A model generated the notes under the pieces. It ran no database searches. It was not told the DNA's origin and saw nothing but the letters and a program-made list of their open reading frames with translations. This document shows positions 19,195-43,914 of a DNA stretch of 64,000 bases, piece by piece. The number at the start of each line of letters is the position of its first letter. Positions within the stretch are counted from its first letter, which is position 1. Location of the stretch: the NCBI GenBank assembly GCA_965204575.1, contig OZ241993.1, positions 672,001 through 736,000 of the forward strand, in the 5' to 3' direction. The stretch comes from an uncultured candidatus Porisulfidus sp. Lineage in GTDB: Bacteria > Pseudomonadota > Gammaproteobacteria > Poriferisulfidales > Poriferisulfidaceae. The position numbers and the translations under genes are program-made.

Positions 19195-21297
19195 TCAGAA
19201 CAGGTCTTTGAGCAGTTTCCGCAGAACTTTTCCGGCGGGCTTGCCAGCTTTTTCTTCGACTTTTTCCTCGACCTTGTCGACGATGGACTCCAATCCCTTA
19301 TCAAGCCCTTTGTCCAGTTGTTCCTCGACCAGTGACGACATGTCCAGGGAGTGTGACAGGTTGTCGAACGGTCCTCGGATCCGAACCGGAATCCGCAGGC
19401 TGTCGCCGGACCAGACGTTCAACTGGTAGTCGATCGACGAATGCGGCAGGTCGATGTAACCCAGCCCGTCCAGGGAAATCGCGCCGGCATTCAACTTCAA
19501 TTCGCGACTGGTTAATCGCCCGTCGTTGGCGTCCCAGCTCGCAAGCAGCAGGTCGAACGGCAACTTGCCCTGGGAGGTCGTTTCGCTGGGGCGTCCCTGC
19601 AGTGCTGCAACGGCAGCCTCTACGGCTTGGGCGACCCCTCCGACCTGCAGCACGCCGTTACGCACGGTCAAACTGGCGAAACCGGTCAGCGAAGGCCAAA
19701 GCGTGGCCATGCGGTGTCCGCGCGCGTTGAAGGCCAGGTTCAGGTCGGTCGTGCCCTCGATGGGGGTGTGCCCATGTTCGTCGAACAGGGCGAGCACGCG
19801 GCCGAGTTCCATCTGTTCCAGTTTCAGATCCAGCCGATACAGCGGAATGCCGCCGGAGACGTCCAATTCCGCGCTGGCCTCGACCGTGCTGTCGTTGATT
19901 CTCCCGTCCAGCGATTCGACTTCCCAGAGCCCCTGATTGGCTGTCAGCTGAGTGCGTGTTTCTGCGAATTGAAGCCCTTGCCAATGCAGGCGTTCCAGCG
20001 CTACTTTTGCCACGAGCCTTTGCTGGCGGAGCCAATCGATCGGCAAGCTGCTTGGTTTCGGTGATGCCGCACCTTCGGGATCGGGTTTTTCCTCGGCTTC
20101 GGCTGCCTGATCCTGAGGGAGGTAACGGTCCAAGTCGATCTCGCCCACCTGCAGGTCCAGGGCGAGCCGCGGCCGGTCGAAGTCCAACAGAGAGAGTTCT
20201 CCTCGAATCGGGGTGGAATCCAGCACGGCATCCAGCCCCGACAGCTGGACTCCCTGCGGATGGATCCTGAGATCGCCTTGCCATTTCAGGAACCGCAAAG
20301 CGGTCGGATCCTCCAGGGTTGGCACTTCTTCGTTCCACAGGGCCAGCCAGTGCAGGACGTCGACGCCGGTTCCCTCGACATGTCCCGTCAATTCCGGCTT
20401 TTTGGACAAGGACTTCACCTCCAGAGGGGCGAGCCGCAACTGCGCGCCTTCGACCGTCGCCTCGGTTCCATCGAGGCGAAGAGTGTCGCTTGCCTGGTCC
20501 CAGTGGAAGGATTCGGCCTCAATGGTGGGATTGATGCGCATGAAAGCGAATGCCGGCCCAGTCAGCTCCAGCGTCATGTCCAGGTCTTCCCCGGCGATTT
20601 TCTCTCCGCCGTCTTTCAGGGCGAGATCGGTGGTCATCTGCACTTGGGCATTGATTCGGCTTTCGGCACGGGTGTCGAGCCAGGCCATCAACTCGCCGTT
20701 CAATGCGACCTGCATGTTGCCGCCGGAAGTCAGGTTCTTCAAGTTCAGGTCGAGATCAGAGCCTCGCAGGCGGCGATTGCGCAACTCGTCCCAGATCGCG
20801 ATGGTCCCGTCGGTCAGGTGGATCTCGGCCAGGTCAATGCCGGTCGCTTTGCCCGGGTCGCCTGGGCCGGGGCTGGCGGCACCCTGGGCGGCGAGCAGGT
20901 CGGACCAATTGGTGTGCCCGTTCGACTTCCGCCGCAGCCGCAACTGCAGTCCGTCCAGAAGTACGGAGCGAATGCGCAGTTCGCCGAGCAGCAACGGGAT
21001 GACTTGCAAATACGCTTCGACGCGTTTCGCGGTCAGCATCGGCTCCTGCCCGAACCCCGGAGGGTTGTCGAACGAGATGTCGTGGACCTCGAAGCCGACC
21101 AGCGGCGGGTTCAGGTGCAGGTCCAGGCTGCCGTCGATGGTGAATGCCCGCCCGGTCTGTTCCTCCACTAGATTGATGAGGTCGTCCCGGTAATCGTCGG
21201 GTTCGAACGTCAGCACCAGGTAGCTGAGCGCCAACAGGCCCGCAAGCACCAGCGTCAGGATGCCGAAGGCGGTGTAACGCAGGAGCCTGAACAGCAT
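19195..21297 (-). CDS. asmA: AsmA family protein
   Basis: N-terminal TM anchor, FEPDDYRDDL..LVEEQTGR..IDG, IDLDRYLP, IPVRIRGPF; asmA-mutY synteny. Confidence 0.85.
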   Translation of the reverse strand: MLFRLLRYTAFGILTLVLAGLLALSYLVLTFEPDDYRDDLINLVEEQTGRAFTIDGSLDLHLNPPLVGFEVHDISFDNPPGFGQEPMLTAKRVEAYLQVIPLLLGELRIRSVLLDGLQLRLRRKSNGHTNWSDLLAAQGAASPGPGDPGKATGIDLAEIHLTDGTIAIWDELRNRRLRGSDLDLNLKNLTSGGNMQVALNGELMAWLDTRAESRINAQVQMTTDLALKDGGEKIAGEDLDMTLELTGPAFAFMRINPTIEAESFHWDQASDTLRLDGTEATVEGAQLRLAPLEVKSLSKKPELTGHVEGTGVDVLHWLALWNEEVPTLEDPTALRFLKWQGDLRIHPQGVQLSGLDAVLDSTPIRGELSLLDFDRPRLALDLQVGEIDLDRYLPQDQAAEAEEKPDPEGAASPKPSSLPIDWLRQQRLVAKVALERLHWQGLQFAETRTQLTANQGLWEVESLDGRINDSTVEASAELDVSGGIPLYRLDLKLEQMELGRVLALFDEHGHTPIEGTTDLNLAFNARGHRMATLWPSLTGFASLTVRNGVLQVGGVAQAVEAAVAALQGRPSETTSQGKLPFDLLLASWDANDGRLTSRELKLNAGAISLDGLGYIDLPHSSIDYQLNVWSGDSLRIPVRIRGPFDNLSHSLDMSSLVEEQLDKGLDKGLESIVDKVEEKVEEKAGKPAGKVLRKLLKDLF

Positions 21298-39585: not shown

Positions 39586-41367
39586 TCAGGGATTGATCCC
39601 GTCCACGTGCTGTTGCAGCCAGCATTCCAACGCTGCTGCATGCCATAGGAGGCTGCCGTCCAGCGCAGTTCGATAGCGCAGGGGATCCCGAAGCAGCCGG
39701 TCCAGATACTCTCCCCTGAACAGCCCACGATTCCGGCATTCGGGCAGATTCAAGGTTTCCCGCGCCCAGTCCAGGAAAGGCCCCTGCACGTACTTGAGGG
39801 CCGGAACCGGGAAATACCCTTTTGGCCGGTCGATCACCTCCGCCGGCAGCCGCGACCGGGCCAAGGCACGCAACGGGTACTTGCCGCCGTCGCGCAGCTT
39901 CAGTTCTGCCGGCATCCCGGCGACGCATTCCACCAATTGATGGTCGAGATACGGCACGCGCGCTTCAAGCCCCCACGCCATGGTCATGTTGTCGACCCGC
40001 TTGACCGGATCATCGGTGATCAGCATGGTCGCGTCCATGCGCAGCACGGCATTCAGGAATTCGACGTCCTCGCTGCATTCCAGCCGTTCGGCGAGCAATG
40101 CCCGGGTATGATCCTCGCCGACCCATTCCGGCACCAGCGCCTCACCGAACTCATCGTGGGTACGGTCAAGGTAATGGCGGCAGAAAGCATCCAGTCCGTC
40201 CGCCTGTTCCTCGTGCATTTTCGGGTACCAGGAATAGCCTGCGAACACTTCATCTGCGCCTTGCCCGCTCTGCACGACCGAGATGTCTGGCTTGACCTGT
40301 TCGGCCAGCAGGAAGAACGCCGCCGCGTCCTGCGCCACCATGGGTTCGCTCATGCAGCCGATGGCCTCGTCCAAGCGGCCCAGCAGTTGATCGTTGCGGA
40401 TGAAGTAACGGTGATGTTCGGTGGCATAGTGCCGGGCAACCGCATCCGAGTAGTCGAATTCATGCCCGGCTTCTCCGCCTGCGTCCTCGAAGCCGATGCT
40501 GTAAGTGCGGATGGGTGAGGAGCCATGCTCGGCCAGCAGGGCCACCAGCAGGCTGGAGTCCAGGCCGCCGGACAGAAGCACGCCGACCGGGATGTCGGAG
40601 ATCTCCACCCGCTTGCGCACGGCCTCCCGAAGTTCGACATGCACCTGCTCCACCCATTCCTCCGTGCTGCGAGCGGGATCCGGGTTGCGTGCATCCAGTT
40701 GCCAGTAACCCCTCTCTTTCATCGTGCCGTCCGCATCGACCATCAGGCAGTGGCCCGGCGCGAGCTTGCGGATGGAGCGCAGCAGGGTACGGGGTGCCGG
40801 GACGACCGCGTGCAGGCTCAGGTGATGGTGCAGGGCGACCTCGTCGAGCGCAAGATCGACGTCCCCGGTGGCAAGCAACGCCTGTACATTGGAGGCGAAG
40901 CGGAACACATCGGGGCTCTGGTGGTAATAAAGCGGCTTGATGCCCAGCCGGTCCCGGGCCAGGAACAGTTGCTCTGCATCCGGATCCCATAGGGCGAAGG
41001 CGAACATGCCGTGCAAGCGCCCGACGCAGTCTTCGCCCCACTCGGCGTAGGCTTTCAGAATGACCTCGCTGTCCCCCGTCGTCTGGAAACGGTGGCCGCG
41101 CTCTTTGAGCAGCGTTCGCAGTTGCGGGTAGTTGTAGATGCACCCGTTGAACACCAGGATTCGCCCGGAATCGGGATCCAGAAGCGGTTGATGCGCGCGG
41201 GGATTCAGGTCGATGACCGACAGGCGTCGGTGTCCCAGGGCGATCGGGCCCTGATGCCACTGGCCTTCGTGATCGGGTCCACGCCGGGCCAGGGGCCCAA
41301 GCATGCGGGTGATTCGGGCGGGGTCGGCCGGCCCTCTAAAATGCCTTTCTCCCGCAATTCCACACAC
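39586..41367 (-). CDS. Asparagine-synthase-family amidotransferase (N-acetylglutaminylglutamine amidotransferase-like)
   Basis: (M)CGIAGE Ntn start at GTG 41367, RGPD, LSGGLDSS, SGQGADE, DDPVKRVDNMTMAWGLEARVP, KGYFPVPALK. Confidence 0.85.
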   Translation of the reverse strand: MCGIAGERHFRGPADPARITRMLGPLARRGPDHEGQWHQGPIALGHRRLSVIDLNPRAHQPLLDPDSGRILVFNGCIYNYPQLRTLLKERGHRFQTTGDSEVILKAYAEWGEDCVGRLHGMFAFALWDPDAEQLFLARDRLGIKPLYYHQSPDVFRFASNVQALLATGDVDLALDEVALHHHLSLHAVVPAPRTLLRSIRKLAPGHCLMVDADGTMKERGYWQLDARNPDPARSTEEWVEQVHVELREAVRKRVEISDIPVGVLLSGGLDSSLLVALLAEHGSSPIRTYSIGFEDAGGEAGHEFDYSDAVARHYATEHHRYFIRNDQLLGRLDEAIGCMSEPMVAQDAAAFFLLAEQVKPDISVVQSGQGADEVFAGYSWYPKMHEEQADGLDAFCRHYLDRTHDEFGEALVPEWVGEDHTRALLAERLECSEDVEFLNAVLRMDATMLITDDPVKRVDNMTMAWGLEARVPYLDHQLVECVAGMPAELKLRDGGKYPLRALARSRLPAEVIDRPKGYFPVPALKYVQGPFLDWARETLNLPECRNRGLFRGEYLDRLLRDPLRYRTALDGSLLWHAAALECWLQQHVDGINP

Positions 41368-41422
41368 AATACAAGTATAGTAAAGCCTTTTTCTGGAACT
41401 CTTTTTATATGAAGGCCGCCTG

Positions 41423-41690
41423 TAACGCAAGTTACTCTCCAGACCGTGTTGGGGGCGGCCAGATTGCAGTTTTATATTCGACCTGTTGATGCGGGTCCCG
41501 CCGAAGCTTCGCCCACTGGCCCTGATGGAATCTGCCGACCCGGTCCTCATTTCCAAAACGAGCTCGTAGCTCAAAGAGACTGCCAGGCTGACGGGTCGTC
41601 AGGTCTGGTCCTGCTTGCCATCACAATCGGGAATGCCTTGCGCAACCTGTTTCGTGCCACCTCCTCTGGTGAAGTCAGTGTCGGGAGCCG
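41423..41690 (-). ncRNA. Putative bridge/seek RNA in the IS1111 downstream non-coding region
   Basis: Structured region with segments matching the reconstructed target (TTGGAAA, CTCTTT) and the circle junction (ATATAAAA); boundaries approximate. Confidence 0.65.
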
Positions 41691-42719
41691 TCAGCCGCGC
41701 GGCGGACAGACGTAATCTTTCTGGTACTTGCGGCCATGGGCCAGCAAGGCCCAGGCGATTCTCGCCTGCCGGTTGGCGACTGCCACCGCGGCGACGTTGA
41801 ACGGCTTGTTCCGCTTGATCTTCTCGACCCACTCGGGCAGCTCCCGGCCGTTGGCCAGCAGTGACCGGGCGCCATGGATCAGCAGCGTGCGCAGGTAGCG
41901 GTCGCCCCGCTTGCTGATGCCGAGAATGCGGGTCTTCCCGCCAGTGCCGCTGTGGCGCGGCACCAGCCCCAGCCAGGCCGCGAACTCCCGAGCGTTGCGG
42001 AACGCCCGCGCGTCTCCCGCGGCGGCGACCAGGGCGGTCGCGGTCAGCAGGCCGATGCCCGGCACCTCCCGCAGTCGCCGGCAAGCCTCATGGCTTGTGC
42101 ACCATGCCTCCAGCTTCCGCTCGACCCGCGCAATCGCCTCGTCGTGCTCGTGGACGCGACGCCACTGCGCGGATAACTCTTCCCGACCCATCTCCGGGAC
42201 TCGCCCAGCCAGCCGGTCCAGCACGCCTTCGATCTCCCGGCTCAGCCCGGCCCGTCCTTGCGGCATCACCTCCCCGTATTCGCCCAGCAGGCCGCGCAGG
42301 CTATTGATCGTCGCCGTGCGGAACTTCACCTGCTGCTGCCGCAGGCGGTGCAGCCCCAGAATCATCTGCTGCTCCTCGTCCTTGATCGCCACCGACTTCG
42401 ACCGCGGATGCTGCACCGCCGTCCAGATCGCCCGCGCATCCTGCACGTCGCTCTTGTTGCCGGTGACGAACGCCCGCACCGACTGCGCCGGCAACACGGT
42501 CACCTCGTGTCCCATCTGCCGGAACCGGCGCGCCCACTCCTGCGAACCGCCGCAGGCTTCCAACCCGATCCGGCAGGGCGCCCGGTTGGCAAAGTGCTCG
42601 ACGAACTTCTGCCGCGACAGCTTCAGATCGACCAGTTCGCCGCCGGCCTCCACCCAGTGCAGTTGGAACACGTGCTTCGCGGTATCCACGCCGACCACCG
42701 GTTTATTGCTATACTCCAT
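41691..42719 (-). CDS. IS110 family transposase/recombinase
   Basis: VGVDTAKHVF, GLEACG, KSDVQDA (DEDD RuvC-like); GLVPRHSGTGGK, GISKRGDRYLRTLLIHGAR. Confidence 0.96.
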   Translation of the reverse strand: MEYSNKPVVGVDTAKHVFQLHWVEAGGELVDLKLSRQKFVEHFANRAPCRIGLEACGGSQEWARRFRQMGHEVTVLPAQSVRAFVTGNKSDVQDARAIWTAVQHPRSKSVAIKDEEQQMILGLHRLRQQQVKFRTATINSLRGLLGEYGEVMPQGRAGLSREIEGVLDRLAGRVPEMGREELSAQWRRVHEHDEAIARVERKLEAWCTSHEACRRLREVPGIGLLTATALVAAAGDARAFRNAREFAAWLGLVPRHSGTGGKTRILGISKRGDRYLRTLLIHGARSLLANGRELPEWVEKIKRNKPFNVAAVAVANRQARIAWALLAHGRKYQKDYVCPPRG

Positions 42720-42861
42720 CTCGAATCCTCCAGTCTGGCTCGTTGAAGTCGCCTATTGTCCACCTTTGGTACCCTAGATGCCGTCCGGACTCACTGGAGG
42801 ATTCACCCTCTCCCAGTAATCCGGTCGCCAAGGCCAGGCGGCTTTCATACCATTTCCAATC

Positions 42862-43914
42862 ATGCCCGATTCGCTGCCGGATTTATCGCATGCCATCCGC
42901 CGGTGGGGCGGGGAACTGGGCTTTGACCAGGTGGGCATCACCGACCTGGATCTGGAAGAGCATGAGGTGCATTTGCTGAACTGGCTGGAACAGGGCCGGC
43001 ATGGCGAGATGGACTACATGCAGCGCCACGGAGTGCGCCGTTCGCGCCCCGGGGAGCTGGTGCCCGGAACGCAGCGGGTGATTTCGGTCCGGCTCAACTA
43101 CCTCCCGCACGGGTTTGATCGCGCCAAACAGGCACTGGCGGACCCCGCCTGCGGCTACGTATCCAGGTACGCTCTGGGCCGGGACTACCACAAGGTCCTG
43201 CGCGGCCGTCTGCGGAATCTGGTTCGACGAATCGAGGAAGCGGCCGGTTCCTTTGGCTACCGCGTGTTCACCGACAGTGCGCCGGTGCTTGAGAAGGCGC
43301 TGGCGGAGCGCGCCGGGCTGGGCTGGATCGGCAAGCACACCAACCTGCTGGCCAAGGATGCGGGATCCTGGTTCTTTCTGGGCGAGATCTACACGGACCT
43401 GCCGCTGACGCCCGACCCGCCGACCCGCGAAGAACATTGTGGGGATTGCCACGCCTGCATCGATGTCTGCCCGACCCAGGCGATCGTCGCGCCATACCAG
43501 TTGGACGCGCGCCGCTGCATCTCGTACTTGACGATTGAATTGAAAGGATCGATTCCCGTATCGCTGCGGCCATTGATCGGAAACCGGGTCTACGGCTGCG
43601 ACGATTGCCAGCTGGTCTGTCCGTGGAACCGTTACGCCCAACTGGCGGCCGTGGAAGATTTTCGGCCACGGGCCGTGCTGGAGGAATCGTCGCTGGTGGA
43701 AATGATGGCTTGGGAGGAAGAGGACTTCCTGCGTTACACCGAGGGTACGGCAATGCGCCGCATCGGCCACCTCCAGTGGCTGCGCAATGTCGCCGTGGCA
43801 CTGGGCAACGCCCCGCGAAACGAGACGGTTACCGCATCGTTGAAAGCTCGCTCCGGGCACCCCAGCCAACTGGTGCGCGAACACGTTTCATGGGCGCTGG
43901 AGCGCCACGCGTGA
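42862..43914 (+). CDS. queG: Epoxyqueuosine reductase
   Basis: SRYALGRDYHK, DSAPVLEK, GSWFFLGE, two 4Fe-4S Cys clusters, GCDDCQLVCPWN. Confidence 0.96.
   Translation: MPDSLPDLSHAIRRWGGELGFDQVGITDLDLEEHEVHLLNWLEQGRHGEMDYMQRHGVRRSRPGELVPGTQRVISVRLNYLPHGFDRAKQALADPACGYVSRYALGRDYHKVLRGRLRNLVRRIEEAAGSFGYRVFTDSAPVLEKALAERAGLGWIGKHTNLLAKDAGSWFFLGEIYTDLPLTPDPPTREEHCGDCHACIDVCPTQAIVAPYQLDARRCISYLTIELKGSIPVSLRPLIGNRVYGCDDCQLVCPWNRYAQLAAVEDFRPRAVLEESSLVEMMAWEEEDFLRYTEGTAMRRIGHLQWLRNVAVALGNAPRNETVTASLKARSGHPSQLVREHVSWALERHA

Follow-up and report, generated by a model that had tools for sequence, protein, structure and literature searches.

A predicted bridge RNA with readable target guides downstream of the transposase gene of an IS1111-group insertion sequence in an uncultured candidatus Porisulfidus sp.

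Does the non-coding tail of an insertion sequence (IS) spell out where the element inserts? We address this question for an IS1111-group element on the minus strand of a 64,000-nucleotide stretch (the window; positions 672,001 to 736,000 of contig OZ241993.1, assembly GCA_965204575.1) of an uncultured candidatus Porisulfidus sp., whose genome is a single 1.82-Mb contig. That IS110/IS1111 elements choose their targets by RNA guidance has been known since 2024, as set out in PMC11187229 and PMC11208160. The original prediction for this locus, made from the letters of the window, was that the region after the transposase gene carries guides for the target site and for the element's own circle junction. 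Our analysis makes it very probable that 41406-42855 is an intact, recently active IS1111-group element and that a seekRNA/bridge RNA of about 165 nt is encoded in the 285 nt behind its DEDD transposase gene. Structure covariation, covariation between guides and flanks, and homology of the RNA to that of an ISEc11-like element and IS5075 support the presence of readable guides, both for the target and for the junction of right and left ends (RE-LE junction); the same three lines uphold the predicted target guides.

We fetched 80 loci with transposases 56-63% identical (L009-L088), which with the two genomic copies of the element made a set of 82 sequences, of which 67 extended at least 340 nt downstream and matched the protein cleanly. 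After six loci with split or odd matches were set aside, 47 distinct downstream regions were left. These align as a conserved scaffold with two variable stretches, located exactly where the guides had been predicted. On the minus strand of the window, CTCTTT (41578-41573), the hairpin (41572-41560), TTGGAAA (41556-41550) and ATATAAAA (41477-41470) all lie where they had been described. Alignment A1, built by anchor motifs, comprises 49 distinct RNA regions of 135-175 nt (window, the copy of congener G007 and the 47 relatives), and yields a consensus structure of six helices. In this structure 98.9% of cells are paired, and compensatory changes occur in 14 of 31 pairs, values reached by none of 500 shuffles; when the partners were slid by 1-3 columns, pairing fell to 31-44%. 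Folds of the single sequence reproduce the stems of the original prediction, its outer GACCCG/CGGGTC stem in an 81-nt fold. Several helices contain G-U pairs, which suits an RNA of the transposase-sense strand. The compensatory changes mark the stretch behind the transposase gene as a conserved structured RNA. We do not claim a further helix (CCAGA with TCTGG in the window) as the outermost closure of both modules, as the pairings possible in the relatives vary in register.

A covariance model built from A1 (R1) ties the region to CHARACTERISED elements, with 109.8 bits for the stretch behind the transposase gene of an IS on an E. coli plasmid and 81.3 bits for an IS on a Klebsiella plasmid. 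R1 also matches the downstream non-coding region of annotated IS5075 (43.1 bits, E 6e-9). In the E. coli plasmid IS the aligned loop strands are CAGUAUUUU and GUGAAAAU, and the flanks are GGTGAAA/ATG... and ...CATAT/AAATACTG (here and below a slash marks a junction). Loops and flanks both spell GTGAAAATACTG, which is the published target of ISEc11 in the text of PMC11187229. Since the record of the E. coli element has no annotation, we take its name from the target sequence and speak of an ISEc11-like element.

Within the host genome R1 gave four matches, two to the copies of the window IS and two to a diverged IS1111-type element at G000:C1:1241919-1243330 and 1813850-1815261 (L130, L131), whose copies are 99.86% identical. 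The seekRNA of this diverged element scores 87.4 bits, and its loops read GTTGATAAACA and ATCTCAGTGATG, in agreement with the element's flanks CT(C/G)AGTGAT/.../TTTATCAAA, so that it is an internal control with unrelated guides. When its core is placed by homology, the junction dinucleotides differ (TG left versus TT right); an AT core, one base over, would remove this conflict. Two weak R1 matches in the window, at 19814-19895 on the minus strand (13.7 bits, E 0.083) and 40496-40587 on the plus strand (11.3 bits, E 0.33), neither beside a transposase gene, are most likely noise.

Table 1. Coordinates of the insertion sequence, its predicted RNA and its insertion site in the window
Feature	Positions	Strand	Basis
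IS1111-group insertion sequence, 1450 bp with one AA core copy counted	41406..42855	-	identity with copy 2, excision restoring an open reading frame, empty congener sites
Transposase gene, 342 aa, DEDD/RuvC-like and Tnp domains; only long open reading frame of the element	41691..42719	-	Pfam, motif residues, PDB sequence matches
Left subterminal inverted repeat ATGAAAGCCGCC	42837..42848	-	read from the sequence
Right subterminal inverted repeat GGCGGCCTTCAT	41409..41420	-	read from the sequence
Left AA core copy	42854..42855	-	junctions of both copies and empty ortholog site; left end proper from ATGGTATG at 42853
Right AA core copy	41404..41405	-	same junctions and empty site; right end proper ends CATATA at 41406
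Left target flank ATTGG	42856..42860	-	the queG start codon's complement lies 1 nt upstream (minus strand)
Right target flank AAGAG	41399..41403	-	read from the sequence
Predicted seekRNA/bridge RNA	41462..41624	-	covariance model R1, 114.7 bits; extent is that of the model match, about 165 nt
5' side of target-module outer stem	41592..41601	-	helix 25-34/89-96 of A1, 8/8 pairs changed on both sides
Target-loop 5' strand GCAGTCTCTTT, predicted right-target guide, complementary to top strand A-AA-GAGACTGC	41573..41583	-	covariation with right flanks, G007 junctions, positions in ISEc11-like model
Hairpin GAGCT-ACG-AGCTC between the guide strands	41560..41572	-	fold; helix 56-59/68-71, 3/4 pairs compensatory
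Target-loop 3' strand GTTTTGGAAATG, predicted left-target guide: left target and AA core, then ATG	41548..41559	-	left flanks ATTGG-AA and TTTGG-AA, covariation, TTAG in G007
3' side of target-module stems, AGG and ACCGGGTCG	41536..41547	-	structure covariation in A1
GATTCCATCAG, candidate right-donor guide or 3' strand of invariant helix with UGAUGG (41618-41623)	41522..41532	-	alifold helix
Stem and hairpin of second (donor) module	41480..41521	-	helices 113-117/153-156 and 119-123/140-144 of A1, two compensatory pairs
ATATAAAA, putative left-donor guide: right end ATATA, AA core and first A of left end	41470..41477	-	covariation with right end
TTGCGT, -35-like hexamer in right end, 17 nt before terminal TA	41425..41430	-	reading only

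For the comparison of guides with flanks, 58 of the 82 sequences were fully parsed, the rest being too short or outside the patterns, and 36 guide types were taken with one insertion each. As shown by permutation, the reverse-complemented 5' loop strand fits its own right flank (mean longest exact run 6.39, versus 3.55 +/- 0.16 in permuted pairs; 0/2000), and the 3' loop strand fits its own left flank (4.94 of 7 positions, versus 2.79 +/- 0.23; 0/2000). The strands of the first internal loop therefore covary with the right and left flanks in 36 relatives of differing guides. By the length of their longest match on the right side, the 58 insertions divide into 13 with 4 nt, 8 with 5 nt, 16 with 6 nt, 2 with 7 nt, 11 with 8 nt, 7 with 9 nt and 1 with 10 nt, so that natural sites are often imperfect. 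Shifts of 1 nt in the A-rich core also occur between copies of one relative (L035 versus L036). In the window, the pattern CTCTTT-N(10-25)-TTGGAAA is found once on both strands together, with 0.02 occurrences expected and at least one match in 2 of 100 shuffles.

The limits of the element are fixed by a second genomic copy at G000:C1:24149-25598 (L002; copy 2), which mismatches the window copy at 1 of 1450 positions. This difference lies in the left non-coding end, and the transposase open reading frame (ORF) is intact in both copies; the near-identity points to recent activity. Copy 2 has the flanks GCGTTTGG/.../AAGAGCATGC. The ORF that it splits (...FRRRAIRAKRL / EEHALEDNDLDLVKQL...) is conserved and intact in congener G005. 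Exact excision of 1450 bp from copy 2 gives an ORF with the frame and length of the uninterrupted G005 ortholog (...RAKRL EEHALE... in the restored ORF, ...RAKRL DADALE... in G005). From this restoration follow an element length of 1450 bp, a copy-2 target TTTGG-AA-GAGCATGC with two A's, an RE-LE junction CATAT-AAAA-TGG with four A's, and a window-copy target ATTGG-AAAA-GAGTTCC, also with four A's; the last two agree with what had been predicted for this locus. The junctions of the window copy read, on the minus strand, ...CATGATTGG/AAATGGTATG on the left and ...CTTCATATA/AAAAGAGTTCC on the right, which confirms that removal of 41406-42855 gives GATTGG/AAAAGAGTT. Both copies stand after TTGG-AA and before (AA)GAG, i.e. 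insertion is specific for site and orientation and makes no duplication beyond the core. Copy 2 thus lies at a related TTTGG-AA site, as the original prediction would have it, and not at an unrelated sequence.

We place the element in the IS1111 group on account of its DEDD and Tnp domains, catalytic residues, subterminal repeats and longer downstream non-coding region. The transposase matches PF01548 (DEDD_Tnp_IS110, E 2.9e-12) and PF02371 (Transposase_20, E 9.3e-23), and its PDB sequence matches are the ISCro4 and IS621 transposases. Its putative catalytic residues, assigned by reading, are D12 (GVDTAK), E54 (GLEACG), and D91 and D94 (SDVQDA). T259-G260 lies within GLVPRHSGTG, and this TG aligns with SG of the solved ISCro4 transposase; the TG variant and the GL-P----S/T-G motif are stated for IS1111-type enzymes in the text of PMC11187229. 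The 12-nt subterminal inverted repeats are complementary at 11 of 12 positions (ATGAAAGCCGCC versus GGCGGCCTTCAT). The non-coding region measures 285 nt downstream of the gene (41406-41690), versus 136 nt upstream (42720-42855).

What target do the guides of the window element encode? The original prediction had read the right guide as CTCTTT and the target as the 11-nt TTGGAAAAGAG. The hexamer is present and complementary to the right target; the guide itself is longer, namely (G)CAGTCTCTT(T). This extension comes from congener G007, whose IS is 86% identical to that of the window and is represented by one full copy (L103) and by ends at contig ends. Its seven distinct right junctions carry AA-GAGACT(G) or close variants (AAGAGACT four times, AAGAGTCT, AACTGACT and AAAGTGACT once each). 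The guides accordingly spell a target of about TTTTGG-AA-GAGACTG(C), and TTGGAAAAGAG turns out to be no more than the site at which the window copy sits. With CAGTCTCTT 5' of TTTTGGAA, the top-strand match comes 5' of the bottom-strand match. The site of copy 2, TTTGG-AA-GAGCATGC, is in the register of the family and matches at 6 of 8 right-target positions.

G007 also bears on the left guide. Its 5' loop strand is ACAGTCTCTTT (window GCAGTCTCTTT), with the right guide kept, and its 3' loop strand is GAGTTAGAAATG versus GTTTTGGAAATG in the window, with TTAG for TTGG; four left flanks in G007 end in TATAG, GTGAG, GGGAG and ATTAG. Left guide and left flank thus appear to have changed together (TTGG to TTAG), and where the right guide is shared, so is the right target. 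A variant of the IS in another organism (B), roughly 96% identical, has the right flanks AAAAGACT... and AAACTGACTG....

Many contigs of the G007 draft assembly end inside the IS. Its contigs C17, C18, C19, C21, C50, C53, C79, C32, C45 and C75 together show at least seven right-end and at least four left-end junctions, compared with two copies in the host, so that the IS has expanded in G007.

The second part of the original prediction was a guide for the circle junction. Here ATATAAAA does covary with the right end: among 66 parsed insertions of relatives, its T/C position agrees with the right end in all 66, and the next variable position in 65 (G in 11/11, A in 54/55). In the types with G, the core position of the left junction is likewise G. 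This covariation supports ATATAAAA as the left-donor guide, with the proviso that a DNA repeat bound by a protein would covary in the same way. A second donor strand, which the prediction had not mentioned, was not established. The candidate is GATTCCATCAG: its ATTCCAT and the ATGGTAT of the left end show complementarity at 6 of 7 positions, and a few C/G and A/T matches of this segment with the left end occur among the relatives. The helix of GATTCCATCAG with UGAUGG is predicted by alifold and is invariant, so no covariation signal is possible. Only one donor strand, ATATAAAA, is therefore supported by the comparison. We also considered a 'handshake' role for the ATG after the core in the 3' loop, and rejected it, because relatives with left end ATT or ATA keep AUG; since it is kept in the RNA where the left end differs, this AUG looks like scaffold.

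By analogy with ISEc11 and IS621, the IS would excise as a circle with an RE-LE junction. The junction would place TTGCGT 17 nt upstream of TAAAAT, a -10-like hexamer that would exist only in the circle (TA/AA/AT). A promoter and terminator scan of the integrated IS found none, including no sigma-70-like promoter. A promoter formed at the circle junction, with silence while integrated, is the behaviour of the family described in PMC11187229. Transcription through the gene and the non-coding region would yield the RNA, which we take, on the same analogy, to be made, bound by the transposase and required for transposition. In the target loop, the 5' strand (G)CAGUCUCUU(U) would pair with the core and right target in their top strand (AA-GAGACUG), and the 3' strand UUUUGG-AA(-AUG), equal to left target and core, would pair with the bottom strand. 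The donor module would present AUAUA-AA-A, i.e. right end and core of the circularised element. The complex of transposase and RNA would then pair both target-loop strands with opposite strands of the site, with the junction held via the donor module and the subterminal repeats, and strand exchange at the AA core would give insertion in one orientation, without duplication beyond the core.

Several observations weigh against the reading of the region as a working two-module RNA. Folds of the single sequence were no better than those of shuffles (z = -0.33 for 285 nt, -1.76 for 81 nt), for which reason we rely on the comparative data. An Rfam scan of 41000-43200 with E up to 10 matched no family, and among RNA sequencing runs none was listed as containing the IS sequence. 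The site of the window copy is imperfect, its two extra A's in the A run putting it 2 nt off the family register, so that the two guide strands disagree by 2 nt over the position of the core. In both host copies the match to the right guide spans no more than 5-6 contiguous nt, and the distal GACT seen in G007 is missing. In the host genome 14 TTGGAAGAG sites are unoccupied, and there is no perfect TTGGAAGAGACT site. Given these imperfect or out-of-register sites, the 14 free ones and the lack of a perfect one, guides alone do not explain the position of the IS. On the side of G007, a full non-coding region is found in L103 only, and the multi-copy variant at contig ends has another left end; the target loop of that variant is thus assumed from L103, not read. 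As to the donor module, its second strand is ambiguous, as CCAU(CA) is invariant and can pair with invariant UGAUGG instead, and the donor loop may be dispensable in the family, since an 82-nt ISEc11 seekRNA with target matches only supports transposition at 42% according to PMC11187229.

How far do these points favour other explanations? The short ISEc11 seekRNA is an argument for a strict seekRNA, in which only the first module is a guide. ATATAAAA would then repeat the right-end terminus as DNA, for reading by the transposase or in connection with the junction promoter, and would covary with the right end on that account. In line with this, ATATAAAA lies outside any helix-closed loop predicted in the consensus fold, no partner donor strand is proven for it, and two DNA sites bound by one protein would covary alike. 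The match of ATATAAAA, however, extends across the core into the left end, as expected of the junction rather than of the right end alone; ATATAGAA types go with G at the core position and left junctions GAAT; and bridge RNAs with a donor loop, located in the right end, are predicted for 93% of the catalogued IS1111 elements in PMC11208160. We therefore regard the strict seekRNA as rather unlikely. That the guide-flank matches are coincidental and the region is a mere 3' untranslated tail could be argued from the shortness of the matches (6-7 nt) and from the single-sequence fold, which is not significant. Against it stand the 0.02 occurrences of the pattern expected in the window, the two permutation results of 0/2000, the compensatory changes in helices, and the second IS of the same genome, which behaves alike with different guides; coincidence is hardly credible.

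It could also be that the element arrived recently and is now silent, its RNA gene intact and neither expressed nor used in this host. There are only two copies, the 14 TTGGAAGAG sites are free, and the integrated IS has no sigma-70-like promoter. Contigs from three DNA runs of the same organism, which are blind to rare forms, show only the two known flank sets of the IS, with no RE-LE junction and no empty-site allele, and a 12-mer of the RE-LE junction is absent from these contigs and from the host genome. Yet silence of the integrated form together with a circle-junction promoter is normal for the family (PMC11187229), and both copies have the ORF intact, their one difference in 1450 positions being located in the left non-coding end. 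A silenced element seems to us improbable, and an intact, recently active IS with a two-module RNA remains the reading that we prefer.

Like ISEc11 (Siddiquee, Pong, Hall and Ataide, Nat Commun 2024, PMC11187229), the window element has a transposase (342 aa) within the IS1111 length class of 330-350 aa, subterminal inverted repeats, a long non-coding region downstream of the gene, and a top-strand-complementary guide 5' of the bottom-strand-complementary guide, the order given in that paper for IS1111-type seekRNAs. The register is that of the ISEc11-like element: left target of 4 nt, AA, right target. The transposases of these two are about 52% identical, the targets differ (TTTTGG-AA-GAGACTG in the window, GTGA-AA-ATACTG for ISEc11) as do the guides, and the window element ends with one extra A on either side of the core.

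Like IS621 of the IS110 group (Durrant et al., Nature 2024, PMC11208160; Hiraizumi et al., Nature 2024, PMC11208158), as presented in the text of these papers, the window element has a predicted two-module RNA, target strands that would pair with opposite DNA strands and overlap at a 2-nt core, one RNA strand with the donor-junction sequence, and a transposase of the DEDD and Ser/Thr type; the Tnp domain matches IS621 chain 8wt6 with E 2.4e-6. Unlike in IS621, the RNA is located behind the gene, in the right and not in the left end, the order of the target-loop guides is reversed, the subterminal inverted repeats are long, TG stands for SG and the core is AA for CT; a right-donor guide and handshake guides are not established. 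A further comparison is with IS5075 / IS4321, IS1111-family elements of enterobacterial plasmids: R1 finds the RNA region of IS5075, and the transposase is 35% identical.

The window copy splits a formerly 44-nt divergent spacer (41368-41405 and 42856-42861) between queG, encoding epoxyqueuosine reductase (Pfam) on the plus strand with its start at 42862, and an asparagine synthase gene on the minus strand with its start at 41367. As the IS lies 6 bp from the queG start codon, it has probably displaced the promoter or leader of queG and/or of the asparagine synthase gene. Nine congeners (L090-L098) have an intact, IS-free queG/asparagine synthase spacer, in which 17 nt correspond to 18 in the window after excision. 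The congener sequence at the insertion site has diverged (e.g. GCGAAAAAAAGTCCC) and does not fix the exact pre-insertion sequence, so the length of the element is settled by the ortholog of the ORF split by copy 2.

Elsewhere in the host genome, at G000:C1:about 1097075-1097255 (L007 about 1443-1625), we found an element of about 190 bp without transposase gene or seekRNA. Both of its ends resemble the left end of the IS (73-79% identical, inverted); its left flank is again ...CGTTGG, and on the right the flank disagrees with the right guide. We may have here a miniature derivative that is mobilised in trans.

The window IS adds no new mechanism, and a specialist would expect such a case. Its value is that of a clean natural example with unusually good controls from natural variation, in which two near-identical copies and one empty-site ortholog fix length and core, a congener has left guide and left flanks changed together, and a diverged second IS serves as internal control. 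It also gives evidence that an element can insert in nature despite short guide matches and shifts of 1-2 nt in an A-rich core, which bears on the off-target behaviour of tools of this kind.

The relatives raise a wider possibility, since their targets resemble translation-initiation regions, with insertions that fall behind a Shine-Dalgarno-like motif and ahead of the start codon of a co-oriented gene. SD-like motifs (resembling a Shine-Dalgarno sequence; GGAG, GAGG or AGGA) occur in the last 10 nt of 52 of 67 distinct left flanks, versus 102 of 1600 random 10-mers. ATG follows the right end by 4-18 nt in 56 of 61 distinct right flanks, and in 41 of these 61 the ATG begins an ORF of 80 codons or more that is oriented like the transposase gene, versus 83 of 1340 random positions. 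The guides of the relatives are partly constant in a matching way: the left guide has GGAG-AA, and the right guide has, at its far end, the complement of CAT. We tentatively suggest, at somewhat less than even chances, that this clade (transposases 56-63% identical; Alpha-, Beta- and Gammaproteobacteria) has partly hard-wired guides, the left ending in GGAG/AGGA-AA and the right complementing CAT(G) at its far end, and homes to the interval between Shine-Dalgarno sequence and start codon of a co-oriented gene. The 5-7 middle bases would pick the gene, and the lineage of the window would have been naturally reprogrammed away from such sites (TTGG / GAGACT), with a left guide that differs once more in the congener (TTAG). 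The literature searched contained no report of an IS1111/bridge-RNA clade targeting Shine-Dalgarno/start regions; sequence logos in the figures of PMC11187229 and PMC11208160, and their supplements, may bear on this. If true and undescribed, the clade would represent a family of RNA-guided transposons whose targets are, as a class, translation-initiation regions.

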